Source: a virus
Taxonomy: Duplodnaviria > Heunggongvirae > Uroviricota > Caudoviricetes
Virus record (IMG/VR): IMGVR_UViG_3300013121_000049
Coordinates: 16,253 to 80,252 of that record
Reading direction: 5' to 3' (one strand)
DNA: 64,000 bases
Shown piece after piece: positions 1 through 23,553 of the stretch. The translations under genes and the position numbers were made by a program. The notes beneath the pieces were generated by a model, which made no database searches, was not told where the DNA came from, and saw nothing but the letters and a program-made list of their open reading frames with translations. Every line of letters begins with the position of its first letter. Position 1 is the first letter of the stretch.

Positions 1-1135
1 GGCTGCAGAATCCCGTCTGGACTTCCCGGGGCTGGCCGTTCACGTAGTTCTGGTCGAGGTAGGCCAGGTTGGCCACCGTCGGATTGGATATGTCGATCCG
101 GTTGCGATCAGTCGTATCGGCCTGACCCCCGTAGATGGATTCCTTGGGCGTGTAGGCGTTGTCCGCGCTGAACACGCTGGGCGTCAGGAAAACCACCGGG
201 GCCACGCCGGTCACGACGGCCATGCCATAGGACAGGTCGCAGGGGATCATGACGGTCTTTACCTTGAGGGCGGACCGGGCGTAAATGTCCACCATGCCGC
301 CCCGGTGGATGGAGAACGGTGCTCCCAGGGACTGCTGCACCACCAGGTAGTCCCGCATCATCTCGTAGTCCGTGTAGCCGGCAGAGTACTGGTAGGAAAT
401 GAAGTTGAACAGGTTGCGGATGACGTAGTCGATCGACGGGAGGTTCACCAGGTTGCGCGTGGAGACCGCACTGGGGGCGCGACCGATGAAGTGGGTGTTG
501 GACTCCGGGGACACCGATTCGTTGGTCAGGTAGAGCGCCGTGGCCCCGACGAAGTAATTGTTGACGATGGAGAAGTACAGGAATTCGCTGCCCGCCTTCA
601 GGTTGTATTCGTTGCCCTGCCCCGTGGACTGGCAATCGATATCCACGTAGTAGGACCCCGCCACGGAGTCGAACGTCATGGCTGACACCGGGATGGTCTG
701 CGCCTCGATCGGGCTGAACTCGTGGATGTTGTCCGTGCTGAAGGTCAGCGACGTACTGATATACACCGAGGAGATACCCACCAACGGCATGCTGGCCTGA
801 AAGCGCAGGCGCACCCGGACCCGGGAGTACTCCCCCTGATTGCGCTCCAGGAAGAAGTTGGAGAGCAAGCCGTCCACCACGGCCGTCGACGTGTCGTCAG
901 TGGCGTTCACCAGCATGCGGTCACTGTCGTACTGCTGGATGGCCTTCCGCAGCAGGGCCAGCTGGGCGCCCTTGGGGCGGATCAACAGGTCGCGCAGCGC
1001 CGCGCCGTCCCGGAGATCCAGCGTGGGATAGGCGGCGTTCAGCAGCTGGACTACCATCTGCTCGGCGGCGGTAACCTCGTCGGCGGTGACCTGCAGGCCG
1101 GGGAGGACATCGTAGAGATCATAGGGAGTCGTCAT
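1..1135 (-). CDS. Baseplate wedge protein, baseplate J/gp6-like (partial, runs off the window)
   Basis: Not in the ORF track. Manual translation from ATG 1135 gives MTTPYDLYDVLPGLQV...YPTLDLRDGAALRDLLIRP...VDGLLSNFFLERNQG, a typical baseplate-J N-terminus. It follows the gp25-like gene. Confidence 0.75.
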   Translation of the reverse strand, partial: MTTPYDLYDVLPGLQVTADEVTAAEQMVVQLLNAAYPTLDLRDGAALRDLLIRPKGAQLALLRKAIQQYDSDRMLVNATDDTSTAVVDGLLSNFFLERNQGEYSRVRVRLRFQASMPLVGISSVYISTSLTFSTDNIHEFSPIEAQTIPVSAMTFDSVAGSYYVDIDCQSTGQGNEYNLKAGSEFLYFSIVNNYFVGATALYLTNESVSPESNTHFIGRAPSAVSTRNLVNLPSIDYVIRNLFNFISYQYSAGYTDYEMMRDYLVVQQSLGAPFSIHRGGMVDIYARSALKVKTVMIPCDLSYGMAVVTGVAPVVFLTPSVFSADNAYTPKESIYGGQADTTDRNRIDISNPTVANLAYLDQNYVNGQPREVQTGFCS

Positions 1136-1863: not shown

Positions 1864-2273
1864 CAGCGGCCTCTCTGCTCGGCCGTGTTTGCGGTCAGGA
1901 CGAGCCCCAGGGTTGCGATCAAGTTGTCACAGTATAGTTTATCCTGCGCGATGTCCGCCTCGGCTTGCGCCAGATAGCTCTCATGCGTCAGGACCGCCAT
2001 GACGGATTCCCGGTACATGGCTTCCGCCAGCACCGCCTGTTCGGACAGCCTGCCCTCCAGCACGGAGGTCCTGCCCCGGGAAATGCGGGTGATCTCTGTC
2101 AGCAGATTCTCGGCGTTTTCCTGGAAATTCAGGCTAAAGAAAAACGTCCCCGCATGCGAGGACGGACCGGCGAGCCAGGACAGCGTATCCGCTGCCTGGT
2201 CGCTCAGGACGGTCTGGTTGCCAACCGCGTCATGACTCGCGGGGGAACTTGCGGGGTTGAGCGCTGGCGGCAT
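1863..2273 (-). CDS. Hypothetical protein (baseplate cluster)
   Basis: 136-aa ORF filling the gap in a tightly packed minus-strand operon. Confidence 0.6.
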   Translation of the reverse strand: MPPALNPASSPASHDAVGNQTVLSDQAADTLSWLAGPSSHAGTFFFSLNFQENAENLLTEITRISRGRTSVLEGRLSEQAVLAEAMYRESVMAVLTHESYLAQAEADIAQDKLYCDNLIATLGLVLTANTAEQRGR

Positions 2274-3027
2274 GGATGCTCTCCATCTCGGTCTTCAAGC
2301 CCTTCATTTTATCGACGAGCTTCTTCTGGAGATAGTTAAACCGGTTGAGGTTGACCCCCAGCATGGCAGCTTTTTCCGCGCCGGTCTTGTGGGCGTTTTC
2401 CGGCGCCGAAATCACCGTCACCAGCTTGCGCTCATCCTCGTTGAGGTTGTCAAACACGTAGCCATGCACCAGGTAGTTCGAATCGAAGGAGGATGCCGTC
2501 GGGCTGCCTTCCTCGCCGGACTCGTAGAGATCGCGCTGGATCTCGCGCTGCATCTTCTTCACCTGGCGGATAGACCAGTTCAGGTGACCGGCCAGCTCCT
2601 GATGCGTCGGCTCCCGGTTGAGCTGTGTCGACAACTCCTGCAGGCCGGTGTTGTAGTGGCGGAACTTCAGCTGCTGGCTCTCGGACAGCCGGGCGGCATT
2701 CTGGTTCTCCATGTTGATGCGGCTGACCTTGCGCACCCAGTGATTGACGTGGGTGTTCAGGCTGGCGCCGCGCGTCGGGTCGTAGGTCTTGATGGCGTGC
2801 ACCACCCAGGACCGGGCTTCCGCGTGCAGGGCGGACTTGGGAATGCTGCCGGCCTGCTCGTTGACCTTCTTGTTGATGACGCCGTTGAACCGGTTGACGA
2901 TGTTGGTCAGGTTGCGCGGCGTCGGGTTGTTCTTCCAGACCGAATACAGCATTTCGTCCTGCTGACGGTTGGACAGGCTCTCGGGTTCCGCCGCTTCGGC
3001 GCCAGGCTCAAATTGGTCGGTTGACAT
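2230..3027 (-). CDS. Phage sigma-70-family RNA polymerase sigma factor (alternative/group-3-like)
   Basis: Region 2 (AIKTYDPTRGASLNTHV), region 3 (QELSTQLNREPTHQELAGHL) and a degenerate region-4 HTH. Start moved to ATG 3027, which has a GAGGT RBS. Confidence 0.88.
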   Translation of the reverse strand: MSTDQFEPGAEAAEPESLSNRQQDEMLYSVWKNNPTPRNLTNIVNRFNGVINKKVNEQAGSIPKSALHAEARSWVVHAIKTYDPTRGASLNTHVNHWVRKVSRINMENQNAARLSESQQLKFRHYNTGLQELSTQLNREPTHQELAGHLNWSIRQVKKMQREIQRDLYESGEEGSPTASSFDSNYLVHGYVFDNLNEDERKLVTVISAPENAHKTGAEKAAMLGVNLNRFNYLQKKLVDKMKGLKTEMESIHAASAQPRKFPRES

Positions 3028-3304
3028 CTTGACGTACCTCATCGGAAAGTGGGACTCCGGACCGCACCTTGATCGCGTAATCGAGCAAGAATTTCTGCAG
3101 CAGTCCACTGAACTTATACCCGGTGTACACGGCGGCGTCGCCATCGCCCTGGCTGTCGAAGACATTGATCACCGGCGAGATGTACTTGGCCTGGTCCAGC
3201 TCCTGCGGGTAGCTGTAGCCGTAGACCGCCTTGAAGTCGCGGGTGCCTGACTTTGCCGGGGCCGTGGGTACGGGCCCCTTGGATGCACCAATGAGATCCG
3301 CCAT
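3008..3304 (-). CDS. Hypothetical protein
   Basis: MADLIGASKG... from ATG 3304, directly after the hub gene stop; AAGGAG RBS. Confidence 0.65.
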   Translation of the reverse strand: MADLIGASKGPVPTAPAKSGTRDFKAVYGYSYPQELDQAKYISPVINVFDSQGDGDAAVYTGYKFSGLLQKFLLDYAIKVRSGVPLSDEVRQDVNRPI

Positions 3305-3308
3305 GCCG

Positions 3309-6300
3309 TTACTCCTTCTTGGACGTGTCAAAGACTCGGTTGAAGTAGTCCACCATGGCCGGGTTGCGGGCGTAGAGGAATACGCCGGAACCCTCGCCCT
3401 GAATACCATCGACTGCGGACTTGCTGATCACCTTGTTCACATTGCCCTGCCCGATGTTATAGGCGACCACCGCATTGTTCCAGCAAGCTCTCGGCGTCTG
3501 GTTGGGATACTTTCTGCGGAAATACGTGTAGAACCACTCCAGCAAGTACGCCGCGTACTTGATGTTGTGAATCGGGTTGTAGCTCGAACCCTTTCCGACA
3601 TGCAAGCCTTGCTTCAACGCATCGGCATTGTTGAACGGCATGATCTGGCCGTATCCGTAGGCGCCCACCGGACTCTCCCGGTAAGGCCGGTAAGAGCTCT
3701 CCACGCGGATGATCTGCTTGAAGAGGTTTGCAGGATACTCAGGATACTTTTCAGAGAAATACGTATCCTGACCCGCTATCTCCATCGCATGTGCCGCGCG
3801 AGCCGAATCCCTCGCCATGGCAAAGAACGACCCGTCATTCCAGCTGGCATGCCCCGATCGTACAGGAGACGTATACGACGAATTCGGGTTAGGATCGTTT
3901 ACGGTTGCGTCAGGGTGGAAAATGTCAGGCGTAAAGAGGGGGGTAAACGCCGGCGGCGTCACCTGCTTCGACAACATCATCGACTGCTTCACGATGTAGT
4001 TGTAGTTCAGGTACAGGCTGTGCGTGGCCGGGATACCAGAAGGATCTAGCGCCCCGGGACCGGACTGGGTGTAGCCGTCCGGGTAGCCGTTCTCAAACGG
4101 GTATTCGCGCACGAACCGCGCCCGCTCGGGGATCATCTCGGCGGAGATCAGCGTGAAACCATGCACATTCTCCAGGTTTTCCCAGGTCTGGATGCTGCGG
4201 CGCACGGCTCCCATGGCACCCCGCCAGTCCTTCGCCCGAAGATCCTTCATGGACGCCTGCACCTGGACGTCCGGTTGCAGGTAAGAGTACTTGTACTCAG
4301 ACAGGTCGTCGATGAACGCCGCGCCGACGCCCAGCACCTCCTTGTAGTAGCGGTCGGCGGCGTCGCGCGCTTCCTTGGAGGCGTTGACCAGCGTGTGGTA
4401 CCGGTACACCCCGAGGCTGTCCTCCCCGGGCGTCTTGATCTTGCCGATCCCCAGCAGGTCGGCCAACCAGGGGAGGATCTGGCTGGATTCGGTGGAATAG
4501 AGCTTCTCGAAGGTCTGGGCTCCCTCGAAGCTGATGGACGTGGACACCGCGCCGCCGCTGTTGATCGAGTGAGTCACCGACGTGCAGTAGGCGTGGTAGC
4601 TGGGCCGACTCGGCGAGGCATCGATGATGTCCATCGGGTAGCCGGGGATGATATACGGGTTGAACACGCCCGACACGCCGCCCGCCTTGGACGCCAGCAC
4701 CTGCAAGCCGTACTGATAGTCCAGGTACTCGTACATGTGCTGCCAGACCGCTTGCTTGCGCGTCTCGTTCGCACTGATGTCCTCCGAGTTCAAATACAGG
4801 TTGAGCCAGGACGGCACCTGCGCATAGGCGGCGTTGATGCCGCGACCCATCTCATGGCTGGCCGGCGTATTGCACGGATGCAGGGCTCCGGCGGCCAGAG
4901 ATTCAGGGCTGACCGATCCCTGGTACTTGATGGCGACCGCCTCGCGCACCGCGAAGGGAGCGCGCAGGTGAAACATGGACGGCATGTCGGCGGCGCCGAA
5001 CGCCGGGTGATTCCAGTTGGATACCATCCGGGTCGGCGTGTCATAGACGGTGCGCACGCTGAGCGCGTTGTACATGGACGGAAACAGCACGTTGCAGCGC
5101 GGGGCGAAGTAGCCGGGCATCACCGGCTTGACCACGGTCTCGATCGGCGCGGCGGCGGATCCCGGCCCGGATTCGTCCCCCGTAAAATCGCCGGAGAAAC
5201 GCATGACCGGGCTGGTCAAGGTCACCATCTCGTAGCACAGGCTGGTGTAAAACGACGACAGGAACCCCATCAACGGGGTCGTGGACGGCGCGCTGTTGGC
5301 CAGCGAAGTGACCGCCATGAACGTCGCGTCATTGACCGTCGCCTGGATGACTTTCTTGGTTTCAGCATCCGCCTTGTCGTCGAGAATGGCCACCTGACGG
5401 GGATTCATGGTCGCCACCTTGTCCTCGGGCGACGCATCCTTGACCTGCTTGTAAATCTTGGGCGTGGCCTCGCTGGTCGCCACCTGGCGGCCGCTCTCCA
5501 CGGCCTCCTCAATGATCGGATGGCCGGTCAGCGACTCCAAGTACTTCATGTTGCGAATGAGCGGGTAGTAGATCTTGCTGATGGCGTCCTGCTGCCAAGA
5601 AAAGGCGTAACCGTCGTTCGCCATGCCGTTCAGCAGGCGGGCTACCGCGCCGGGCATGCCCTTGAGCTGGCTGCGATAGTCGTAGCCGGTCTTGCTGTAC
5701 ATAAAGATCGGCACGCCGCTGTCAATCGCCTGCAGGCTCTGGGTCGGGGTCTGCGTGGCCGCGTCCAGATCCCCCAGAACGGGCTTGAACAAAGTGCCCG
5801 ACGGGTCCTCCGCCGTGATGGACTTGGGGTTGATCCCCTGCAGCATCTTGAGGGCCACCAGGCCCGCGTTGAAGTCCTGCAGCCCGCCTTGCGAGAAGCT
5901 GCCCGTGCTGTCGCCTGCCGCGCCGCCCGCCAGATCATTGGCGAACTTGGCGAACCCGATGCCGATGCGCTGCATGACGTGGTTCTTGTGACGGCACTGG
6001 TAGGTGATGGTGGTCTCCGCATCGGCTTCGCCTTTCCGCTTGGAGAAGTCCGCCGCCCAGATCTCGCCGGTGAACAGCACCTTGTAGACGCGCTTCAGCT
6101 TGACGATCTCGCCGATCTTCAGGTCGGACTGGGAGAAGTAGTAAAGGTCCTGGAAGTAGTCCAGATACAGGATGTGGACCTTGGGGAAGTACCCTTCTCC
6201 GATGGTCTCCATGCCCGGCAGGTAGCCCAAGGTCAACGTCGCCGTCGGGTAGCGGTTGGCCATGGAAGAGACCGTGATGTTGGCGAACGGAACTTCGATG

Positions 6301-6422
6301 CCCTCGATGAACAGCTTGAAGTCCGGGGCGGAGACGCCGGACAACGGATCGTTCGACTGGAATTCGTCGACGGCCGCCGCCGGCAGGGTCTGGAACGCCG
6401 GTACCGGCTTAGGAATAGACAT
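3309..6422 (-). CDS. Baseplate hub-like protein with C-terminal soluble lytic transglycosylase (SLT) domain
   Basis: N-terminal hub-like beta region (DFKLFIEGIEVPF...). C-terminal SLT motifs IIRVESS, GAYGYGQIMP, NPIHNIKYAAYLL and VVAYNIGQGNV. Start ATG 6422. Confidence 0.75.
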   Translation of the reverse strand: MSIPKPVPAFQTLPAAAVDEFQSNDPLSGVSAPDFKLFIEGIEVPFANITVSSMANRYPTATLTLGYLPGMETIGEGYFPKVHILYLDYFQDLYYFSQSDLKIGEIVKLKRVYKVLFTGEIWAADFSKRKGEADAETTITYQCRHKNHVMQRIGIGFAKFANDLAGGAAGDSTGSFSQGGLQDFNAGLVALKMLQGINPKSITAEDPSGTLFKPVLGDLDAATQTPTQSLQAIDSGVPIFMYSKTGYDYRSQLKGMPGAVARLLNGMANDGYAFSWQQDAISKIYYPLIRNMKYLESLTGHPIIEEAVESGRQVATSEATPKIYKQVKDASPEDKVATMNPRQVAILDDKADAETKKVIQATVNDATFMAVTSLANSAPSTTPLMGFLSSFYTSLCYEMVTLTSPVMRFSGDFTGDESGPGSAAAPIETVVKPVMPGYFAPRCNVLFPSMYNALSVRTVYDTPTRMVSNWNHPAFGAADMPSMFHLRAPFAVREAVAIKYQGSVSPESLAAGALHPCNTPASHEMGRGINAAYAQVPSWLNLYLNSEDISANETRKQAVWQHMYEYLDYQYGLQVLASKAGGVSGVFNPYIIPGYPMDIIDASPSRPSYHAYCTSVTHSINSGGAVSTSISFEGAQTFEKLYSTESSQILPWLADLLGIGKIKTPGEDSLGVYRYHTLVNASKEARDAADRYYKEVLGVGAAFIDDLSEYKYSYLQPDVQVQASMKDLRAKDWRGAMGAVRRSIQTWENLENVHGFTLISAEMIPERARFVREYPFENGYPDGYTQSGPGALDPSGIPATHSLYLNYNYIVKQSMMLSKQVTPPAFTPLFTPDIFHPDATVNDPNPNSSYTSPVRSGHASWNDGSFFAMARDSARAAHAMEIAGQDTYFSEKYPEYPANLFKQIIRVESSYRPYRESPVGAYGYGQIMPFNNADALKQGLHVGKGSSYNPIHNIKYAAYLLEWFYTYFRRKYPNQTPRACWNNAVVAYNIGQGNVNKVISKSAVDGIQGEGSGVFLYARNPAMVDYFNRVFDTSKKE

Positions 6423-7221
6423 AGGGCTCGGCCTCCGCAAACACCTCGGGCGGGTTGTTGTCGGCGTCCCGGCCGAACATGCCGTACATCAGGATGCAGA
6501 ACAGGGCCTGCTCCAGAGGGTTGGTGATCCGCGTGAACAGGTCGGCGTAGTCTTCGGGAACCTGCGGGTTTTGCAAGGTCTCCTGCGTCACTTGGGCCAA
6601 AAGGTTGGCGGGGATCACTGAATGGTAGAGGGACTGCTTGACCGGCAGCGGCAGCTTCTCGATGGCGGACAGGCCGAGGAGGCCGCCCGTGTAGGTATCC
6701 GACAGCCAGGTCAGCAGGGCGTACTCGGACGGCGTGAAGAACTCGCGCACTTGCCCCAGGGAGCACCGCAGGGTGAACACGCCCGCCGCCAGGATGTGAT
6801 CGGTGATGACCTCGAAGTCCTCCGGCGGGTAGACGGTACCCGTGGACATCCGCAGGTTCGCCAGCGCGCATCGTGCGCAGATCCCGCCCTGGGATGCGCA
6901 GTATCCGGGGTGCCGAATGAAGTACTGGAAGGGCTTTGTAGCCTGGTAGGCATTGCCGGTTGCCGCGAGCACGTCCCCGGTTGTCGTCGGGTAGAGAATG
7001 CCGTAGCCCGGCGCACTGATCACCCACTTCCACATGTCGCCTTGCGTCAACACCCGCCGGTCCACGGGAAGCCCCAGGTAGGTGCCGCAGTCCCGTTCGA
7101 CGACGGGGACGGTCGGGTTGACCACGCGGTGCAGCAGGGTGTACGTGTTGCCTGCCGCCGGAGGAATCACGTACAGCAGGTTCTCCAGCATCAGGTTGGT
7201 GGTGTACTTGCGCGTGCTCAT
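6409..7221 (-). CDS. Stand-alone protein homologous to the second Zn-binding region of RNA polymerase beta-prime
   Basis: VVERDCGTYLG resembles VTEDDCGTHEG, and IRHPGYCASQGGICARC resembles VRSVVSCDTDFGVCAHC. All four Cys are present; no NADFDGD or trigger loop. Confidence 0.7.
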   Translation of the reverse strand: MSTRKYTTNLMLENLLYVIPPAAGNTYTLLHRVVNPTVPVVERDCGTYLGLPVDRRVLTQGDMWKWVISAPGYGILYPTTTGDVLAATGNAYQATKPFQYFIRHPGYCASQGGICARCALANLRMSTGTVYPPEDFEVITDHILAAGVFTLRCSLGQVREFFTPSEYALLTWLSDTYTGGLLGLSAIEKLPLPVKQSLYHSVIPANLLAQVTQETLQNPQVPEDYADLFTRITNPLEQALFCILMYGMFGRDADNNPPEVFAEAEPYVYS

Positions 7222-7231
7222 GGACGCCTCG

Positions 7232-8599
7232 TCACGAAGTCGGTAGCGGGGTCGACGACGGAGCCGGGGCCGCCGCCTTGAAATTGGAGATGAACTTCGA
7301 CGTATTCTGCAGGCCGTCCTGCGCGAAGGAAATAGCGGGCAGCACCGATACCTGGGTCTTCGCACCGACAATCGGCACCTGGTCTCCCAGATTGATGATG
7401 CGCTTGATATTGGCTATGGATGCGCCCCCCGTGATCGCGCCGATCTTGCCGCTACGCAGGATGGCCGCCTCCGACCGGATCAGTTTGTCCGCCGTGCGCG
7501 CAAACGAGGAGATATTGCCCCGCAGTTTCTTGGCCTCCGCGATGACCCGTTTGGTATCCTGCACGGTCTTGATGAGCGGGTCGGCGTAGTTGTGGACGCT
7601 CTGAACGACGCCGTGAATGGTGTCACCGATCGACTTGATGCCCTTTTTCTTGTTCTCCAGCGTATCTCCTGCGGACTTCAAGACATCGAGAATACTGGTC
7701 TTGGTACTGACAGCGGGCTGCGCTCCCATGTTCTGGAACAAAGGGGAGTACGCATTGCAATACTCTTCCTCCTCTTTGGCCTGAAGGGCCACGGGAGAAA
7801 ACACGCCTTTGGGGTCCGGGCCCTTCGTCGCCGTACTGAACAGATTGCTCACGAATGTGCCGTTGTTCAGGGAGGTGATGAGATTTCCGGCCTTTGATAT
7901 GGCAGTCGGCGCCTGCACAGTCAGCTTGCGGAAGTCCGTGTCGGAAGCCTTTGCCAGCAGCCCCAACATGTTGTTGAGGTCCGCTACCTCTTGCTCCTCG
8001 GAAGAAGATCGCGGTTGGTACGACTTGACCAGGAAGTCGATATTGAACGAAATTCCGACATCGTTCGCCGCGTTCTGGCCGTAGGAGATGCCGGTGATGA
8101 CGCCGATGATGCTGGCGTTGTGCAATTCGAACGCCACCAGCCGGAAATACCGGGCAAGCGCCGTGCCGCGCAGCAGCTTGTCATAGGCGTACATGAACTT
8201 GTAGAACCAGTTGTTGATGTGGTCGTCGATGAGCACGCCGGAAATCGTCATGCGGCGCGGCGCGCGGCCCATGAAATACACGGCAAAGTCGTCGCCGAAC
8301 GTCGGCAACACCATGGTCTTTTCGCCGTCCTGGTAGCTGACGCTTTGCAGCAGGAAGGACGTCATGCCCGCCAACCGGTTGAGATCGCTGCGCTTGACCG
8401 AAAGCTCCTGCAATACGGCGCGCAGGGTACGATCCTCCGTCTTGTTCACCTGAGCGCTGGTCAGGTTCAGCAGGTGCAGCGATGCGTAACTCCCTCGGCT
8501 TGCCTGAGCCGGGCCTCGCAGGTAGTACCGGGGCAGCGCCAGCGGCATACGCTGGTAGAAGCCATGGTTTTCCAGCGCCGGCTGGTCGAACATTGCCAT
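7232..8599 (-). CDS. Putative tail tube initiator/baseplate structural protein
   Basis: 455 aa; beta-rich tube-like segment (MTISGVLID...GISFNIDFLV); position downstream of the tape measure gene. Confidence 0.45.
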   Translation of the reverse strand: MAMFDQPALENHGFYQRMPLALPRYYLRGPAQASRGSYASLHLLNLTSAQVNKTEDRTLRAVLQELSVKRSDLNRLAGMTSFLLQSVSYQDGEKTMVLPTFGDDFAVYFMGRAPRRMTISGVLIDDHINNWFYKFMYAYDKLLRGTALARYFRLVAFELHNASIIGVITGISYGQNAANDVGISFNIDFLVKSYQPRSSSEEQEVADLNNMLGLLAKASDTDFRKLTVQAPTAISKAGNLITSLNNGTFVSNLFSTATKGPDPKGVFSPVALQAKEEEEYCNAYSPLFQNMGAQPAVSTKTSILDVLKSAGDTLENKKKGIKSIGDTIHGVVQSVHNYADPLIKTVQDTKRVIAEAKKLRGNISSFARTADKLIRSEAAILRSGKIGAITGGASIANIKRIINLGDQVPIVGAKTQVSVLPAISFAQDGLQNTSKFISNFKAAAPAPSSTPLPTS

Positions 8600-8829: not shown

Positions 8830-11700
8830 TCAATGTACCTGATAGTCCGAGACCAACCACCGATTGGGGTTGACGGTCTCCGTCTTGGCGTTCAGGACGC
8901 CGCCCGGCGCAGCGGTTGTACCGCCATCTTCTCCCTTACCGGCTTTTCCATTGAAGCGATCGACTGCTTGGGCGAAAACTTGTGCGGCCAGGCTCATGAC
9001 TTCCTCCGGAGAATGGCCTGCGGGGTTGCCTGTGGCTTCCCGGAGGGCCTCTACCGTCGACACCGCAGCTTCGTCTCTCCGAGCCGCCATGATCTGGGCC
9101 TGTGCCCTCTGCCAGTCTTCCCGCAGTTGCTCCGGGGTTGCCCGCAGTGCGTGAGACCGGATATCCCCGATCGCCTGGGCGTCCCGGAAATTGGAATGAA
9201 TGTCCAAGCCCACATGAGTCGCGGTTCCTGCCGCTCCGGCCATGCCGAACGCTTTGAGGCCCCCAACGTAGTCTTTTACTAACGAAATGGTCGCCAAGAG
9301 CTCTTTACGATTGACCTCGCTGGGATTACGAGCGAGATTGTTGCGTGCTTGTACGAGCCGCCGCTTGGTTGCACTTCCCTCCGCCAAATCCCCTGACTGG
9401 TCTATCCGGTCCGCCACGATAAGCAGTGCCTTGTTCTCATCCGCCACGCGATACCCTTTTTGGCTGCGGATACCTTCCATGGTTAAGGCGCCTATAGACA
9501 CTGCATTCGATATCTGGGCGGCCAGCGTGTTTTGCTCTGCCGTCGCTCCGTAGCCCACGCCGAACAAATCCCCCGTCAGCTTTTTACGGTACTGTTCCTC
9601 TGTCGTGGCGTCCCGCAGGTTGGAGTGATACAGGGAACCTTTGCTGTACCACTCCTGGGCTTCGTGCCACTTATCGGCGATAAACGCTGCGGTTCCCTTG
9701 TCCTCCATATCATTAAGGATGCCGCGGTATACACCATACGCCGCCCCTACGCCGCGGCCTATGGAAGCCCCCCATGCAGCGCCGCCAACGATGGCGGTAG
9801 GTACAGCTGCGAACCCCAGTCCGCCCGTCCCCAAGCCAAACGCCCCGGCCGCCACTCCGCCAACCGTTGCACCAAGAGCAGCCCCTATTCCCGTGCCCAA
9901 GACACCATAATAGAGAGTGTTTGTAGCTATGCCTGCCGCACTCGACCCCGCCTGACCCCAACTGGACCGGGCCGCCGCATTTTTCATAATGCCTTCTACA
10001 CCAGTCCCGCCGTAACCTCTTTGCAGGGCGCGGGCGTTAGAGTCCTGCTCCTGCTGCTTGGCCATTGCACCCCGTGCAGACCCGGACTGGATAGCGCGTA
10101 TCTGCTGGAGCATGGAGAAGGTTTCGTCTTCGCCCATACCCTGAGAACGGGCTACGTTGATCAGCATGTCCTCAGAGACTTTGCCGGTAGGAGAAAGCAT
10201 TCTGGCCATGCCGATGACATTGGAGTATGCCCCCATCGTCCCCTGGTCCATCATCGCCGCCGACTGCATCATGCGGCCCTGCTGGAAAAGCTGGGCGCTG
10301 ACGTGCAGCGGGTCACGCCCTGCATTGATGGCAAAGGCATTGATCGTGCCCAAGGCCCCCGCCCCTTGCCCGCCACCCAGGTACTGGTTGTACAGCCCCA
10401 TCATTCCCAACGGGCTGCCGTAGAGCTTGCCGGCACCGGACACCGCTGAGTTGGCTATCCCGGAGACGCCGCCGTACATGGCCACCCAAGGCTCGGCGAT
10501 GCCTCCTTGGTTGTACAGTGACCCCACCCCAGCCATGGCACGGGCACCCGCCCGAATACCGGATGCGCCCAGCATACCCATGCCGGCTGCCGTCATCCCG
10601 AAGCGACCGGCGTTCTGCAGTACACTCATGCCGCTCATGCCTGTGGCCATGCTGGCGACGCCAATATCCGTGAAGATGCCTTCCTGCACGCCGCCGTACA
10701 TCGCCCCCTGGTCGGCGAACTGCTTCATGATGGCCTGGACTTCCTGCATGCTGTCTTCGGTCATCTTGAGGACGCGCATGGCGGTCTTGGTCGACCGCAG
10801 GATGCCCTTGAGGCGGCGGTCCATTGCCTCGGGGTTCAGGTTACCGATGCCCTCGAACAAGCCGTTGGCCATGCCCATGCCGGCGATCTGGGCCACCGTA
10901 TTGTTGGAGAACTCCGTCTCCTGCCAGCCACGTTGGACGACCATTTTGCCCAAACGGTATGCACCCTGCGCGGACAAGCCGACACCGGTGGTAGCCCCCA
11001 TGTCGCCTGCAACGTACATATCCGAGTAATTGGACAGCGCGGCTTCCTCCGCCCGCCTGCGATTCATGTAGGGTTCAAATACCGTTTTCTGGGCGCCCCA
11101 AGTCATCCCTTGCGCCAGAAGGACCTCCGGAGCCATGAAGAGAGACGCGCCCATCCCCAGGCCACCGCCCAGGAAACCACCAACGCGGGCGCCCATCAAC
11201 GCAGCTTCCCCTCCGCTGCTCAGGCCAAACAAACGCTTGGACATATAACCCGCCGGAGCCGCCATTGCGCCCCCGATGCCCTGACCCATCCGATAGCCCG
11301 CTTCTCCCAAGACGCCCCAAGTCGGAGCAGTCGCGCCAAACGTCCTCCAGGTGGCGCCCCACCCCGACTTCATTTCGAATTCGACAGTACGAAGACCGGA
11401 TAACGCTTTCTTGGCCAACATGAAGCTGGCGATCGGCGTCACCCACTGCTGCAAGAAACCCATACCGGCGTCAACCGGCGTATTGGCCGCCATGTAGGCG
11501 TTGTGCGCCATCCATGCCGAGGGGTCGTCTCCCCACCCCGGGGCTCCGTGGCCCCAAGGCAAGGTCATGCTGGTAGACGACCAGGGCGACCGTTCGCCAC
11601 CCGGCGTCCCGTACATCGGACGGCGGTTCGGCCCCCACCCCGAGTCAAACCAGTTCTGGTTGCTGGAGTCAGGGTCCATCTGATCATACGGGTTTGCCAT
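8830..11700 (-). CDS. Tape measure protein
   Basis: About 956 aa, Gly/Ala/Met-rich and helical with hydrophobic Gly-rich segments; immediately downstream of a G/GT frameshift chaperone pair. Confidence 0.75.
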   Translation of the reverse strand: MANPYDQMDPDSSNQNWFDSGWGPNRRPMYGTPGGERSPWSSTSMTLPWGHGAPGWGDDPSAWMAHNAYMAANTPVDAGMGFLQQWVTPIASFMLAKKALSGLRTVEFEMKSGWGATWRTFGATAPTWGVLGEAGYRMGQGIGGAMAAPAGYMSKRLFGLSSGGEAALMGARVGGFLGGGLGMGASLFMAPEVLLAQGMTWGAQKTVFEPYMNRRRAEEAALSNYSDMYVAGDMGATTGVGLSAQGAYRLGKMVVQRGWQETEFSNNTVAQIAGMGMANGLFEGIGNLNPEAMDRRLKGILRSTKTAMRVLKMTEDSMQEVQAIMKQFADQGAMYGGVQEGIFTDIGVASMATGMSGMSVLQNAGRFGMTAAGMGMLGASGIRAGARAMAGVGSLYNQGGIAEPWVAMYGGVSGIANSAVSGAGKLYGSPLGMMGLYNQYLGGGQGAGALGTINAFAINAGRDPLHVSAQLFQQGRMMQSAAMMDQGTMGAYSNVIGMARMLSPTGKVSEDMLINVARSQGMGEDETFSMLQQIRAIQSGSARGAMAKQQEQDSNARALQRGYGGTGVEGIMKNAAARSSWGQAGSSAAGIATNTLYYGVLGTGIGAALGATVGGVAAGAFGLGTGGLGFAAVPTAIVGGAAWGASIGRGVGAAYGVYRGILNDMEDKGTAAFIADKWHEAQEWYSKGSLYHSNLRDATTEEQYRKKLTGDLFGVGYGATAEQNTLAAQISNAVSIGALTMEGIRSQKGYRVADENKALLIVADRIDQSGDLAEGSATKRRLVQARNNLARNPSEVNRKELLATISLVKDYVGGLKAFGMAGAAGTATHVGLDIHSNFRDAQAIGDIRSHALRATPEQLREDWQRAQAQIMAARRDEAAVSTVEALREATGNPAGHSPEEVMSLAAQVFAQAVDRFNGKAGKGEDGGTTAAPGGVLNAKTETVNPNRWLVSDYQVH

Positions 11701-12067
11701 GCTTTTCACCTATCCGGAGCTTGGGTCTCGCGTTCGGCTGACGCGGGTCCCGGGTCAACGTCCACGTCATGGTCCTCATGCGGTTGAACTCGGCCAGCAT
11801 GGCCTCTTCCGCCTGGTCTTCCTTCTCTTCCTCTCCGTACACCGCAAAGGCGTAGCTGGATAAGAGAGATTTTAGACGATTCACGATCTTCTCTTCCGGC
11901 GTTCCACCGGCGAAGCCCTGCGCCAGCAACTCGCCGAGCAATTTGCGCTCCTTGCGCTCCATGGCGATGACCCTGCGCATGCAGATGTCCTCAAAGCTGA
12001 ACAGCGGGGCCAGCGTCACGCCCCGCGCCTTGAGGATCATGCGCTCACGCGCCCAGGGTTTCTTCAA
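11684..12067 (-). CDS. Tail assembly chaperone, C-terminal (GT/T) part reached by -1 frameshift
   Basis: Lies in the -1 frame of the upstream chaperone, overlapping its stop at a slippery heptamer. Confidence 0.7.
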   Translation of the reverse strand: MKKPWARERMILKARGVTLAPLFSFEDICMRRVIAMERKERKLLGELLAQGFAGGTPEEKIVNRLKSLLSSYAFAVYGEEEKEDQAEEAMLAEFNRMRTMTWTLTRDPRQPNARPKLRIGEKHGKPV

Positions 12068-12631: not shown

Positions 12632-14257
12632 TCAGGTGGCAAATTGATAGCGTCCGGACAGGTACTCGAAGCCGACCAGCGCAAACACGAGGGAGTGCAG
12701 CCAGTCGTCCGGGGTATCCTCGTCCTTGGAGTATAGGCGGTTGTTCGTGCGCTCGTTGACCTCTTCGAACACCGCCAGGGCGTGCTCCCAGTAGCCTTGC
12801 GTCACTTCCCAGCAGGGAGTGGTGAACTGCGCGCCGCCGCGACGCATGCGGTGGACAATCAGGTCCATGCAGGTCGTGCGGTCGGCCGCCAGGAACATGC
12901 CGGCCTTATTGTGCGCCAACCGGCGGGCGGACGTCACGTACTGAACCATGTGGACCTTGTCGTAACCGAAGAAGTTCTGCAGCAGCTGGTCCTGGACGAC
13001 GCCGACGCCACGGTCCGCCGCGCAGATATCGCAGTTGAACTGCTGGATGATTTTCTTGATGCGGTCGACCTGGCTGAGGATGTGGATGCCCTGCATGATC
13101 TCGCTGTAGAGCAGGTGGACGACACCCATGACGTCAACACCGATCACCGAAGCCACGGTAAAGCTCTTTGTGGAGCCGGTAACCGACCAATCGACTCCAC
13201 AAATCACTTTCAAATAGCCATACTTGGCTTCGGCCTCTCGCCTGGTGGAGAACCACTGGGTCTGCGAGGGATCGCAGCAGGCCATGGCATCGTGAACGCT
13301 GATCGACTTGCCTGACAAGTCGGTCGCCAACCCGAAGTTTTCGTTGGCCAGCACGGTCGGCGAGTAGCTGATCCCCTCGTTGGCCAACCGCACTTTGGCG
13401 TTGAGGTCTGCCCAAGCCACGCCTTCCGTGTTGGCCGACATGATGAACTGCGGCAGATGGCAGCCCATGGCGTCCCGCCGCCCCTGCACCGTCTCCACCC
13501 ATTGCCCCACCCGGACATCGATGTAGCCATGGCAGTGGTAGCACGTCGGCCCCTTCGGGTCGATGCACATGGCCACGCAGCGCGGATAGGTGTTGGGGAT
13601 GCACCACTTCCGGCAGTGCGGGCACTTGATCGCCCACTCCATCTGGTTGCTGCGCAGCCACAGGCGCTCCAAGGAGTTCGCCGTGGACTTCGATGTACCC
13701 GAAAACACCTTGTAGCGGTACGGACTGGCGTCCGATATCGGGTTGATGACGTCGATGGCCTCCAGGAGGATGTCCTGGACCTCGTCGTAGAGGATCTGGT
13801 CGGCGGAGATACCGCGAATACGGTCGCCTTCGCTGGCGTTCTGTGCGTAGCGGATGTAGATCTTGCTGCCGTTGCTGAACTCCTTTTCAAAGACGTTGTC
13901 CACCGAGTCCTTGGCAATGAAGTATTTCCGGACGATCTTGCCGTGCCGGAAAGGCTTCAGGTACATGTTGGAGAATTGCTTGGCCTGCGTCGACAACGGG
14001 GCCACGTAGCACGTCTGAAAGTGTTTGTGCGTCACTGACTGGGTGATCGTCCGACCGCCTTGCGACACCGACTTGCCGATCTGGCGGCCTGCCTTCAGCA
14101 CCATGGTCTTTGGCTGGACGTCGTAGATGAACTTCCAGGGGACGTGCTTGCCGAAACGCAGGGGGTCACCGCGCAGCGTCAGCAGTCCGCTGGCCAAATC
14201 CGAAGGCTTCGTATTGGCCAGGCGTTCCCGAATGGCGTCTACCTGTGAGCTACCCAT
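12632..14257 (-). CDS. terL: Terminase large subunit
   Basis: Walker A KAGRQIGKS, Walker B ILYDEVQD, GDRIRGISAD, CPHC...CYHC Zn finger, nuclease GVDWS...PDDWLHS. Confidence 0.93.
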   Translation of the reverse strand: MGSSQVDAIRERLANTKPSDLASGLLTLRGDPLRFGKHVPWKFIYDVQPKTMVLKAGRQIGKSVSQGGRTITQSVTHKHFQTCYVAPLSTQAKQFSNMYLKPFRHGKIVRKYFIAKDSVDNVFEKEFSNGSKIYIRYAQNASEGDRIRGISADQILYDEVQDILLEAIDVINPISDASPYRYKVFSGTSKSTANSLERLWLRSNQMEWAIKCPHCRKWCIPNTYPRCVAMCIDPKGPTCYHCHGYIDVRVGQWVETVQGRRDAMGCHLPQFIMSANTEGVAWADLNAKVRLANEGISYSPTVLANENFGLATDLSGKSISVHDAMACCDPSQTQWFSTRREAEAKYGYLKVICGVDWSVTGSTKSFTVASVIGVDVMGVVHLLYSEIMQGIHILSQVDRIKKIIQQFNCDICAADRGVGVVQDQLLQNFFGYDKVHMVQYVTSARRLAHNKAGMFLAADRTTCMDLIVHRMRRGGAQFTTPCWEVTQGYWEHALAVFEEVNERTNNRLYSKDEDTPDDWLHSLVFALVGFEYLSGRYQFAT

Positions 14258-16061: not shown

Positions 16062-16633
16062 GTGGCCTCCATCTCCAGGATATACAAACCCATGGCTTCC
16101 TTCAGCGCGTTCTCCTGGGAAACCGCCTCCGGAGTACTGGCGTCAGGGAATTCCGTGTCGGCGACGAACGGGAAAATCGGCCGGCGGATGCCTTCGTGAT
16201 GCAGGACGGTTTCGGCCAGCATGGCGACGGCGGTGTCCGGGTGGAATCCGATGGGCAAGTGGTGGAGGACGTACAGCGTGTAGGCCAACTCCAGGACGGT
16301 CGGCAGCACCAGGACATCCGGCTCATCGGCCTGATTGTTGATGACGTCGCAGGCCGCCAGGAACAACACCTGGTCTTCCTGGATGCGCGGGACTTCGGCC
16401 AGATCCATGACGCCGTTCGAGCTGTCGTCGGCGATACGCTCTTCGACCGGCCGGGCATCGGATAGCAAGCCCTTCAGGAGACGGATCTTCGCCAGCATGA
16501 GTGGTGTGAAAGCCACGCCCAGGTCCAGGGACAGCGTCTCGTCCTCCAGACGCCACCACTGCGGGCCGTGCACCGTCGTCAGCAGCTGGTTGAGCAGGAC
16601 CAGCGAGGTGCGGTCAGAGAGCGGGGCTGGCAT
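16058..16633 (-). CDS. Hypothetical late protein
   Basis: MPAPLSDRT... from ATG 16633; coupled overlap with the next gene. Confidence 0.65.
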   Translation of the reverse strand: MPAPLSDRTSLVLLNQLLTTVHGPQWWRLEDETLSLDLGVAFTPLMLAKIRLLKGLLSDARPVEERIADDSSNGVMDLAEVPRIQEDQVLFLAACDVINNQADEPDVLVLPTVLELAYTLYVLHHLPIGFHPDTAVAMLAETVLHHEGIRRPIFPFVADTEFPDASTPEAVSQENALKEAMGLYILEMEAT

Positions 16634-22538: not shown

Positions 22539-23120
22539 ATGGTAACAGCGCTTCTTTTTTTCGCCGGATTAGGCGCCCTCATCCTATTTGCTTTCTTGTG
22601 CTTCGCTTTCCTGCAAGGAGCCGGGCCGCGCATCACCGCCGCCGCAAGCCGTCTTTTCCCTGATCCAGCGGCACTAAATGCTGCCCAGATCAACGACAAC
22701 CTTGCCAGCCAGGTATTTTTCACGTTGATGCAGGTCTACAAGCCTTGCGCCAAGGCCGGCTTCCGTCCGCTGACTGCGACGGAGATGAGCCTGCTGCAGA
22801 GAGCCTTCCAATACGACCTGAAGCGGCAGATGTTCCGCGAACGCTACACCCACCGCAAGGCAATGATGTCGAACTCCGAATTGCGGGAAGAAGCCGCGGC
22901 GTGCTTTGTCCGAGTAGTGTCTCCGCTTTTTCCGGATGCCGCCGTCACACGCCTGCTGGAGCATGCGAACGTCATCGTCCAGATGGAGAGCTACAGCGGC
23001 TCTACGCCGGAACTTCGTGAATGGACGATCGGCATGCCTATCGAGGCACCACAACCGTCCGCCGCTGACGGCGCGCCGCCCGCAGTATCGCTTTCAGGCC
23101 TTCCACTGAAATCTTCGTGA
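22539..23120 (+). CDS. N-terminally membrane-anchored hypothetical protein
   Basis: Hydrophobic N-terminus MVTALLFFAGLGALILFAFLCFAFL. Confidence 0.7.
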   Translation: MVTALLFFAGLGALILFAFLCFAFLQGAGPRITAAASRLFPDPAALNAAQINDNLASQVFFTLMQVYKPCAKAGFRPLTATEMSLLQRAFQYDLKRQMFRERYTHRKAMMSNSELREEAAACFVRVVSPLFPDAAVTRLLEHANVIVQMESYSGSTPELREWTIGMPIEAPQPSAADGAPPAVSLSGLPLKSS

Positions 23121-23553
23121 CCGGCCCCAGGAACCGCTTGTCGTCGTACTGCTTGAGGAACGCCCGGATGGCTTCGTCGCGCCGGCGGAAGCCCAGCATG
23201 ACCTTGTCTTCGTCCCACTTGCCCCAGTCGCCGGCCACCCGCTGGTGGACCACATAGGCAAACGGGGCTTTCTTGTCGGGACCGACGTAGACATCCAGGG
23301 CGTCGCCGTCGCGTCCCCGGGTCGCCTCGATGTAGCCATAGGGATGGTGCATCTTCACCTTCCAGCCCGGGCCTTCCCGCGTGCTGCCCTTGGGGTTCTC
23401 GATGGCGATCGGGATGCCCTGAAAGTCGACCCTCGGCTTGAAATAGTTCCCCGCGCGGATCTGGGCATCGGTCGGCTTCCGCCACACGCCGCGACCACCC
23501 AAGTCTTCGCGCAATTCCGCGAGCTTTCGCATCTCACACAGGAAATCGTTCAT
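23038..23553 (-). CDS. InPase (inorganic pyrophosphatase-like, polyvalent-protein family) domain protein
   Basis: AGNYFKPRVDFQGIPIAIENPKGSTR...MHHPYGYI...GRDGDALDVYVGP...DEDKVMLGF motifs. Start 23553 (MNDFLCEMRKLA). Confidence 0.82.
   Translation of the reverse strand: MNDFLCEMRKLAELREDLGGRGVWRKPTDAQIRAGNYFKPRVDFQGIPIAIENPKGSTREGPGWKVKMHHPYGYIEATRGRDGDALDVYVGPDKKAPFAYVVHQRVAGDWGKWDEDKVMLGFRRRDEAIRAFLKQYDDKRFLGPVTKISVEGLKAILRAARRQRRTVVVPR

Follow-up and report, generated by a model that had tools for sequence, protein, structure and literature searches.

The stretch of DNA analysed here (the window, 64,000 nucleotides in length) covers positions 16,253 to 80,252 of the IMG/VR record IMGVR_UViG_3300013121_000049, a tailed virus of the class Caudoviricetes; the viral record measures 144,252 bp, carries direct terminal repeats and is rated 100% complete. 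A minus-strand gene at 6409-7221 of the window encodes a protein of 270 amino acids, P0001, and the statistics of sequence comparison establish that its N-terminal module is a true homologue of the zinc-bearing Zn-II module of the beta-prime subunit of RNA polymerase (RNAP). The reading that we favour, and hold to be fairly probable, is that P0001 is a late structural protein of the baseplate hub, stapled by zinc and made in step with the tail lysin, whose N-terminal module is an exapted paralogue of the Zn-II module in the phage's own beta-prime. Zinc binding, location in the baseplate and the direction of the duplication are what we infer within this reading. To our knowledge the beta-prime Zn-II module is so far on record solely as a part of RNA polymerase, and we know of no free-standing homologue.

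P0001 is the orthologue of gp7 of Salmonella phage Arash, with which it shares gene order and 24% identity (expectation value, E, 4e-6). Its start codon is the ATG at 7221-7219 and its stop codon the TAA at 6411-6409, and the TGA of the upstream gene occupies 7232-7234. A longer TTG-started frame reaching up to 7371 was ruled out as the gene because the homologues share the Met start of P0001. The gene and its parts, all on the minus strand, are the following.

6409..7221, minus strand: P0001 gene, 270 amino acids, orthologue of Arash gp7 (open reading frame and translation; start set by homologue alignment)
7227..7230, minus strand: GAGG ribosome-binding site, 6 nucleotides before the ATG (read from the sequence)
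7162..7215, minus strand: family-specific N-terminal motif, residues 3-20 (column counts in a 79-sequence alignment)
6847..7152, minus strand: beta-prime-derived module, residues ~24-125, running from the last part of the bridge helix across the Zn-II module up to the trigger-loop base (profile, hhalign and model)
7087..7089, minus strand: codon of C45, within DCGT, aligned to E. coli beta-prime C814 (conserved in 79/79 sequences)
6928..7044, minus strand: variable loop between the first and second Cys, residues 60-98 (spacing counts and profile of model confidence)
6868..6900, minus strand: C108-x6-C115-x2-C118 knuckle, codons 6898-6900, 6877-6879 and 6868-6870, aligned to C888/C895/C898
6427..6744, minus strand: helical C-terminal domain, residues ~160-265 (conserved within the family, alignment A4)
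6409..6422, minus strand: 14-nucleotide overlap of the last P0001 codons with the ATG (6422-6420) of the downstream lytic transglycosylase (SLT) gene (sequence)

The signal of beta-prime ancestry emerged only once a profile of the family had been built, a single sequence being insufficient: P0001 alone returned nothing significant in Pfam, PHROGs, NCBIfam or the sequences of the PDB. In a single-pair BLASTP comparison with RpoC of E. coli K-12, residues 25-118 align with 792-898 (E 0.005), and all four Cys are placed co-linearly on C814, C888, C895 and C898. An exhaustive profile search from the four closest sequences delivered 129 representative clusters (E up to 0.001), mostly of proteins of ~280 amino acids; P0131, a protein of 1293 amino acids with EGF repeats, was set aside as a false match. 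A search for related loci among viral contigs, made with a 4-sequence alignment, confirmed no relative. C45, C108 and C115 are found in all 79 sequences of the family alignment and C118 in 78, and the family consensus V-x-V-V-E-x-D-C-G-T-x-L-G ... R-x-x-x-x-C-x-S-x-G-G-x-C-x-x-C-Y lies nearer to beta-prime than does P0001 itself. When the 79-sequence profile was run against all PDB chain sequences, the 60 matches listed were exclusively beta-prime chains. The best was Mycobacterium smegmatis beta-prime (882-998 to profile 35-124, E 1.8e-12, 50 bits), and the E. coli chain was recovered at E 1.4e-3. A comparison by hhalign of the N-terminal family alignment with a small alignment of beta-prime modules gave a probability of 98.2% (E 4.4e-14), where an earlier alignment of 5 sequences had given 24%. 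Positions other than the Cys are also common to the family and beta-prime, in the segments V-V-x-x-D-C-G-T, E-x-G-T, V-R, G-x-C-x-x-C-Y and P-x-V-G.

These comparisons bear directly on an earlier note on this DNA, made by a model from the letters and translated reading frames alone, which had seen in the gene a DCGT followed about 60 residues later by C-x6-C-x2-C, with beta-prime-like flanks. The alignment to RpoC 792-898 returns precisely this arrangement: DCGT occupies residues 44-47, 62 residues separate C45 from C108, and C115 and C118 complete the set. The profile comparison with the RpoC module, which the note had named as a check, came out positive at the hhalign probability given above. 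The note was also right that the catalytic NADFDGD and the trigger loop are missing, since the translation of 270 residues contains no NADFDGD-like or GEPGTQ-like motif, no bridge-helix body and no trigger loop. Compared with the Zn-II module of E. coli RpoC (~789-905, part of PF04998), the family shows co-linear homology over ~90-110 residues, the four Cys, the same predicted secondary structure and the flanking motifs DCGT, V-R-x-x-x-x-C and G-x-C-x-x-C-Y. The differences are equally clear. The module of P0001 is free-standing within 270 amino acids, is set among baseplate genes and is followed by a helical domain, with no jaw or catalytic domain, and the loop between the first and second Cys spans 49-62 residues in the family versus 73 in RpoC. 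In P0001 itself this loop (C-x62-C) is longer than the family norm (C-x49-C), and model confidence is low at residues 74-89. Ahead of the module lies the family-specific motif R-S-Y-S-x-x-L-L-F-E-D-x-L-D-x-I-P, in which R4 and E13 are almost invariant; the model of the N-terminal domain predicts a helix at residues 7-17.

Structure prediction is consistent with homology but would not carry it alone. AlphaFold2 modelled the full protein with a predicted local distance difference test score (pLDDT) of 84 and a predicted TM-score (pTM) of 0.83, and the N-terminal 135 residues alone with a pLDDT of 73. With both models Foldseek placed bacterial beta-prime chains almost exclusively on top, at weak scores (E 0.07-0.5, TM-score by query, TMq, at most 0.41); for the N-terminal domain the best 50 PDB matches were all beta-prime chains, with TMq 0.28-0.41 and E 0.1 or worse. 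VIA-align superposed residues 20-126 of this domain on E. coli beta-prime 789-903 or M. smegmatis 865-983 (~95 residues, root-mean-square deviation ~5.4 A, Z 3.5-4.0), in a register that agrees with the sequence alignment. Thus the structural comparison with RpoC that the note had proposed ranked the expected chains first and in the expected register, but with weak scores. No PDB representative reached a Z at or above 5 against the whole model, in BFVD nothing matched at E 0.001 or lower, the low-confidence model of the ESM Atlas itself led to unrelated rows, and the Atlas feature search gave no usable match.

The C-terminal half is less easily placed. Its family consensus, TYSGSLLG...LP...LP.R...LEKAL....LY, is modelled with pLDDT >90 in the full protein, and no sequence relative of the domain was found outside the family in Pfam, PHROG, NCBIfam or PDB sequences; alignment A4 of this domain found nothing significant among the latter (best E 0.09, BrxA at 0.3). 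The claim of the earlier note that this half is unrelated to beta-prime thus stands at the level of sequence, but not so clearly at the level of shape, because whole-model shape searches cover 150-175 residues of beta-prime domain 5. When the full model was compared by shape with the ESM Atlas, the ten rows returned were all PF04998 clusters (TM by query 0.37-0.43, 154-174 residues aligned), and residues 20 to ~242 superpose on E. coli beta-prime 789-1315 with Z ~3.3 over ~145 residues. The models therefore hint that more than the zinc module, possibly the whole protein, is beta-prime-like. The TYSGSLLG motif also resembles E. coli beta-prime 1299-1311 over 13 residues, but at -2.5 bits, and nothing equivalent occurs in the phage beta-prime-C protein (described below), so this likeness was taken as chance.

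The whole genome was searched for RNAP genes by tblastn with E. coli RpoB and RpoC and by six-frame Pfam searches. Only one set of beta/beta-prime genes is detectable. As the earlier note had supposed of any further subunits, both genes lie outside the window, ~5.4-30.9 kb past its right end.

Genome 106388-111166, minus strand: beta::beta-prime-N fusion, 1592 amino acids, carrying GADFDGD (tblastn and Pfam)
Genome 85696-87519, minus strand: beta-prime-C, 607 amino acids (tblastn and Pfam)

The fusion spans all of beta and half of beta-prime, the N-terminal one. The second protein, beta-prime-C, corresponds in alignment to E. coli beta-prime 724-941 and 1188-1285, and it has its own NCGT...C-x6-C-x2-C site, followed by a divergent trigger loop. 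In the six-frame search PF04998 was found only in the beta-prime-C gene and PF00623 only in the gene of the 1592-residue fusion. Arash and Vibrio phage D181 carry the same two-gene layout. The phage RNAP is complete without P0001.

This polymerase also points to a source for the module, whose most likely origin, as judged from sequence comparison, is a duplicated and then trimmed copy of the lineage's beta-prime-C. The family profile scored 57 bits on beta-prime-C of D181, 49 on that of this phage (profile 24-133 to residues 211-319) and 41 on that of Arash, in almost gapless alignments, versus 19.5 bits on E. coli beta-prime. Together with its orthologues in Arash (Gp216) and D181, beta-prime-C is thus the highest or equal-highest scoring relative of the module (41-57 bits). 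Unlike P0001, it extends through a trigger loop to the conserved regions of the C-terminus, and with the fusion it makes up a working enzyme. Of the 79 family members, 59 have 49 residues between the first and second Cys; the number is 51 in all three phage beta-prime-C proteins and 73 in E. coli, and bacterial beta-prime chains of the PDB need 22-27 extra loop residues relative to the family profile. It is the shared compact spacing and the near-gapless alignments that suggest duplication within the lineage. The free-standing module and beta-prime-C are 18-33% identical, and BLASTP of P0001 against the beta-prime-C of this phage aligned the Cys knuckle alone (E 0.017).

A separate observation concerns the two modules in each phage. 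They are slightly more alike within a phage (33% in Arash, 31% in D181) than between phages (18-31%), and in Arash both gp7 and beta-prime-C carry DCHT in place of DCGT. Across three genomes, with the pattern absent from this phage, the within-phage likeness hints at co-evolution or gene conversion.

The setting of the gene argues for a place in the baseplate. On the minus strand the order is TerL, two small open reading frames, a protein of 959 amino acids, one of 72, one of 455, P0001, the SLT protein of ~1037, a protein of 133 amino acids, sigma, two small open reading frames and a wedge protein of 599.

12632..14257, minus strand: large terminase TerL, first gene of the conserved block (phrog_675, E 6e-53)
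8830..11709, minus strand: 959-amino-acid protein, equivalent of Arash gp4 (no match in Pfam, PHROG or NCBIfam)
7232..8599, minus strand: 455-amino-acid upstream neighbour, tail-tube-initiator or DNA_circ_N-like, equivalent of Arash gp6 (Atlas look-alikes, weak PHROG match)
3309..6422, minus strand: ~1037-amino-acid downstream neighbour with a C-terminal lytic transglycosylase, equivalent of the Arash gp8 'cell wall hydrolase' (PF01464 SLT, E 4e-18, residues 900-1008; PHROG lysin families)
2230..3165, minus strand: sigma-70-family factor, equivalent of Arash gp10 (PF04539, Sigma70_r3, E 2.4e-6; phrog_351, E 6.8e-5)
2..1135, minus strand: gene of the 599-amino-acid baseplate wedge protein, T4 gp6 / P2 gpJ-like, with the start codon in the window and the end off its left edge (phrog_6, E 1.1e-11; PF04865 Baseplate_J, E 1.3e-3)

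The wedge gene lies four genes downstream of P0001 and the gene resembling a tube initiator directly upstream, so the placement in a baseplate operon asserted by the earlier note is supported. The note had also put a sigma gene in that operon; it is on the same strand, at a distance of 3.2 kb downstream rather than the 3.4 kb given. The 14-nucleotide overlap implies translational coupling of P0001 and the SLT gene. Overlaps of 4-20 nucleotides occur at the same junction in Arash, D181 and two metagenome contigs, and contig L013 has a gap of 2 nucleotides. The block order TerL / ~950 / ~70 / ~455 amino acids / P0001 / lysin-size / ~75 amino acids / sigma / ... / wedge is found again in Arash, D181 and four metagenome contigs and persists even where the P0001 family protein is only ~25% identical. 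It parallels the Mu/P2-type order of tape measure, tube initiator, hub, spike and wedge, to which the genes of P0001 and sigma appear to be lineage-specific additions. The position of sigma, between the lysin and wedge genes, is kept in 7 of the 7 neighbourhoods examined, where the D181 frame, which is unannotated, was assigned by position alone and that of L013 is cut by the end of the contig.

The relatives of P0001 add evidence of their own. No model in Pfam, PHROG or NCBIfam covers the family, and in the records examined (Arash, D181 and metagenome contigs) its only annotation is the 'structural protein' of Arash. This protein, gp7 (WGL32458.1), and the orthologues in Vibrio phages D181, D148 and D69 belong to the same family (E 4e-6 to 4e-11) and share the four Cys and the gene position. 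They are shorter, with 222-226 amino acids owing to a shorter loop and middle region, and 24% identical; no function or link to beta-prime has been reported for them. Lectin domains of the ConA-like type (Laminin_G_3) were found in the family members P0097, P0082, P0027, P0099 and P0071 (E 2e-9, 3.3e-6, 1.3e-16, 5e-5 and 4e-3, respectively). They are inserted just past the Cys knuckle in P0071 and P0097 and in the linker before the C-terminal domain in P0082 and P0099, and in P0027 (L013:3061-5232) the domain is fused at the C-terminus. Inserts of this kind are typical of solvent-exposed, host-facing virion proteins and are hard to fit with a polymerase subunit. One of the insertion spots is the point at which beta-prime continues into the trigger loop, and the trigger loop is a known insertion site in beta-prime. 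The Arash protein Gp007 was detected in purified particles by liquid chromatography-tandem mass spectrometry, with 77% coverage, 7 unique peptides and 202 spectra (PMC10585845). We calculate ~0.9 spectra per residue for Gp007, and its baseplate neighbours Gp006, Gp008, Gp013 and Gp014 range from 0.6 to 1.0.

A number of points weigh against the reading of P0001 as an exapted baseplate protein. The Arash particle preparation contained 116 proteins, including ribonucleotide reductase and kinases (PMC10585845), and because it also held such metabolic enzymes, being detected there does little to prove a structural role. P0001 itself matches no known baseplate family in Pfam, PHROGs, NCBIfam or BFVD (the last at E at or below 0.001). 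Wherever the family occurs, the genome also encodes the phage RNAP and carries a sigma gene at a distance of two to three genes, and since the three always occur together, their co-occurrence cannot separate a role linked to transcription from a structural one. With respect to ancestry, PF04998 (RNA_pol_Rpb1_5) matches neither P0001, at E up to 1, nor any of the 79 N-terminal family segments. Given that the profile stays below threshold and that the structural Z-scores, at 3-4, are modest, the claim of homology rests on the profile searches. Finally, mycobacterial beta-prime reaches 50 bits with the family profile, as high as the phage beta-prime-C, and the donor of the module is for this reason unproven.

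The alternatives closest to transcription start from the same homology. The earlier note had proposed that P0001 could be one piece of a highly split phage RNAP, supplying its beta-prime Zn-II segment. The resemblance to that segment is genuine, the phage RNAP does consist of separate pieces, whose genes lie at other places in the genome, and RNAP subunits were found together with sigma in Arash particles (PMC10585845). But beta-prime-C already has the segment with all four Cys and runs from it into the trigger loop, a second set of beta/beta-prime pieces is not detectable in the genome, and P0001 comes without bridge-helix body, trigger loop or catalytic motif. As the lectin inserts of its relatives also speak against a subunit, this proposal is highly improbable and was not borne out: the fusion and beta-prime-C make up the enzyme without it. 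The note had offered as its other possibility a non-catalytic mimic or a structural reuse of an RNAP module. Homology and the lack of catalytic parts agree with this pair, and within it the gene block, the Arash mass spectrometry and the lectin inserts favour reuse over mimicry. A mimic would act on transcription, carried in or made with the virion, its copied Zn-II surface binding a candidate partner such as a part of the RNAP of phage or host, an intermediate of assembly or the sigma encoded in the operon, so as to tether, deliver, inhibit or help assemble the polymerase. In its favour, similarity is kept over the full length of the module, beyond the Cys, and a sigma gene stands two to three genes away in all 7 neighbourhoods examined. 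Markov et al. are said to have found in 1999 that the Zn-II site of E. coli is required for assembly of beta-prime into the core enzyme, which also counts for mimicry. Preparations of Arash particles are rich in sigma, beta and beta-prime (PMC10585845). The ConA-like inserts, however, are easier to understand in an exposed virion protein than in a ligand of RNAP, and the linkage to sigma may just reflect the frozen gene order of one phage lineage, so that we regard a mimic as unlikely. Its most explicit form, a virion-borne decoy of the beta-prime Zn-II surface at the tail hub that would hold or pass on sigma or packaged phage RNAP, or disturb assembly of the host core enzyme, is a speculation to which we give a slim chance.

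Two further explanations leave transcription aside. P0001 could be an assembly factor of the baseplate hub or tail tip, similar to T4 gp51 and absent from the finished particle as a stable part. A gene placed between hub-type genes and translationally coupled to the lysin gene would suit such a factor, and with an unclean Arash preparation its detection could be carry-over. Against this stand coverage of 77% and a value of spectra per residue equal to that of the baseplate neighbours, and lectin inserts make little sense for a transient chaperone; we judge the idea doubtful, much as we do mimicry. The Cys pattern could, lastly, be a product of chance or a convergent zinc knuckle with no beta-prime ancestry, as the failure of PF04998 to match any family member and structural Z-scores of just 3-4 might suggest. 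This is hardly credible when profile matching reaches E 1.8e-12 with only beta-prime chains among the matches listed, hhalign gives 98.2%, positions besides the Cys are shared and the shape search yields PF04998 clusters only.

The course of events under the favoured reading, a baseplate protein built on a reused beta-prime module, would be as follows. The beta-prime-C gene of the lineage would have been duplicated, with trigger loop, jaw and C-terminal parts lost from one copy, and the trimmed module would have been joined to, or remodelled into, the helical C-terminal domain that is specific to the family. As in beta-prime, the four Cys most likely hold one structural zinc that staples the small module. 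P0001 would then serve as a rigid building block of the virion, its synthesis kept in step with that of the SLT lysin through the overlapping genes. It probably sits on an exposed face of the baseplate hub, because in its relatives two surface sites accommodate ConA-like lectin domains.

Such an arrangement has partial parallels. The split polymerases of jumbo phages (the virion and non-virion enzymes of phiKZ, and that of AR9) are likewise bacterial-type phage RNAPs of unusual pieces, and the enzyme encoded here is probably also particle-associated. In those phages, as far as is known, each piece supplies a segment that the others lack, whereas P0001 is a redundant paralogue whose segment is present in beta-prime-C. 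The 'evolved' Dit (distal tail) and Tal proteins of siphophages are conserved tail-tip scaffolds that in some lineages take up lectin-type domains at surface loops, a functional analogy with no relationship of sequence or fold. What the reading describes is a known RNAP module in a new, non-enzymatic and virion-associated setting, and it would be a rare documented reuse of a module from the core of a transcription enzyme in a virion-associated protein. It provides a first annotation for a widespread unnamed family labelled 'hypothetical' or 'structural protein', and it helps to fill in the picture of a little-characterised lineage of large phages, made up of Arash, the D181-like Vibrio phages and many metagenomic relatives, with a fused-then-split RNAP and a sigma gene within the baseplate operon. 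Should mimicry be true instead, it would indicate a new link between injection and early transcription; in the case of the decoy, injection of DNA would be physically coupled to the first round of transcription, and the phage would have copied a piece of its own polymerase as an in-particle docking site for the transcription machinery.

Several observations on the neighbouring genes complete the picture of the block. The 959-residue protein is possibly the tape measure, with a length that would suit a tail of ~140 nm, which is the length reported for Arash (PMC10585845). Its Arash equivalent, Gp004, has the second-highest spectral count in particle preparations (PMC10585845), calculated at ~1.8 spectra per residue. 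Arash Gp010, the sigma factor, was recovered there with 100% coverage and 467 spectra (PMC10585845); we calculate ~2 spectra per residue, roughly at least twice the values of Gp006-Gp008, Gp013 and Gp014. The 455-residue protein has Atlas look-alikes in PF07157, PF23980, Dit_like and GpU (0.88-0.91), which serve as a lead only, and a weak match to the baseplate hub family PHROG 184 (E 0.006), with no match in Pfam; it resembles the Mu gp43 (DNA_circ_N) type, and its C-terminal part is long and helical. Further off in the window, at 23038-23553 on the minus strand, lies a pyrophosphatase gene; when its start is read as MNDFLCEMRKL, no second stretch in the six frames of the genome agrees with it at 6 or more of 10 positions, and P0001 shows no likeness to it. 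The structural block is closed, just left of the window, by the following gene, whose position is kept in the metagenome relatives L014 and L015.

L012:7846-10719, minus strand: SNF2/DEAD-type helicase, 958 amino acids

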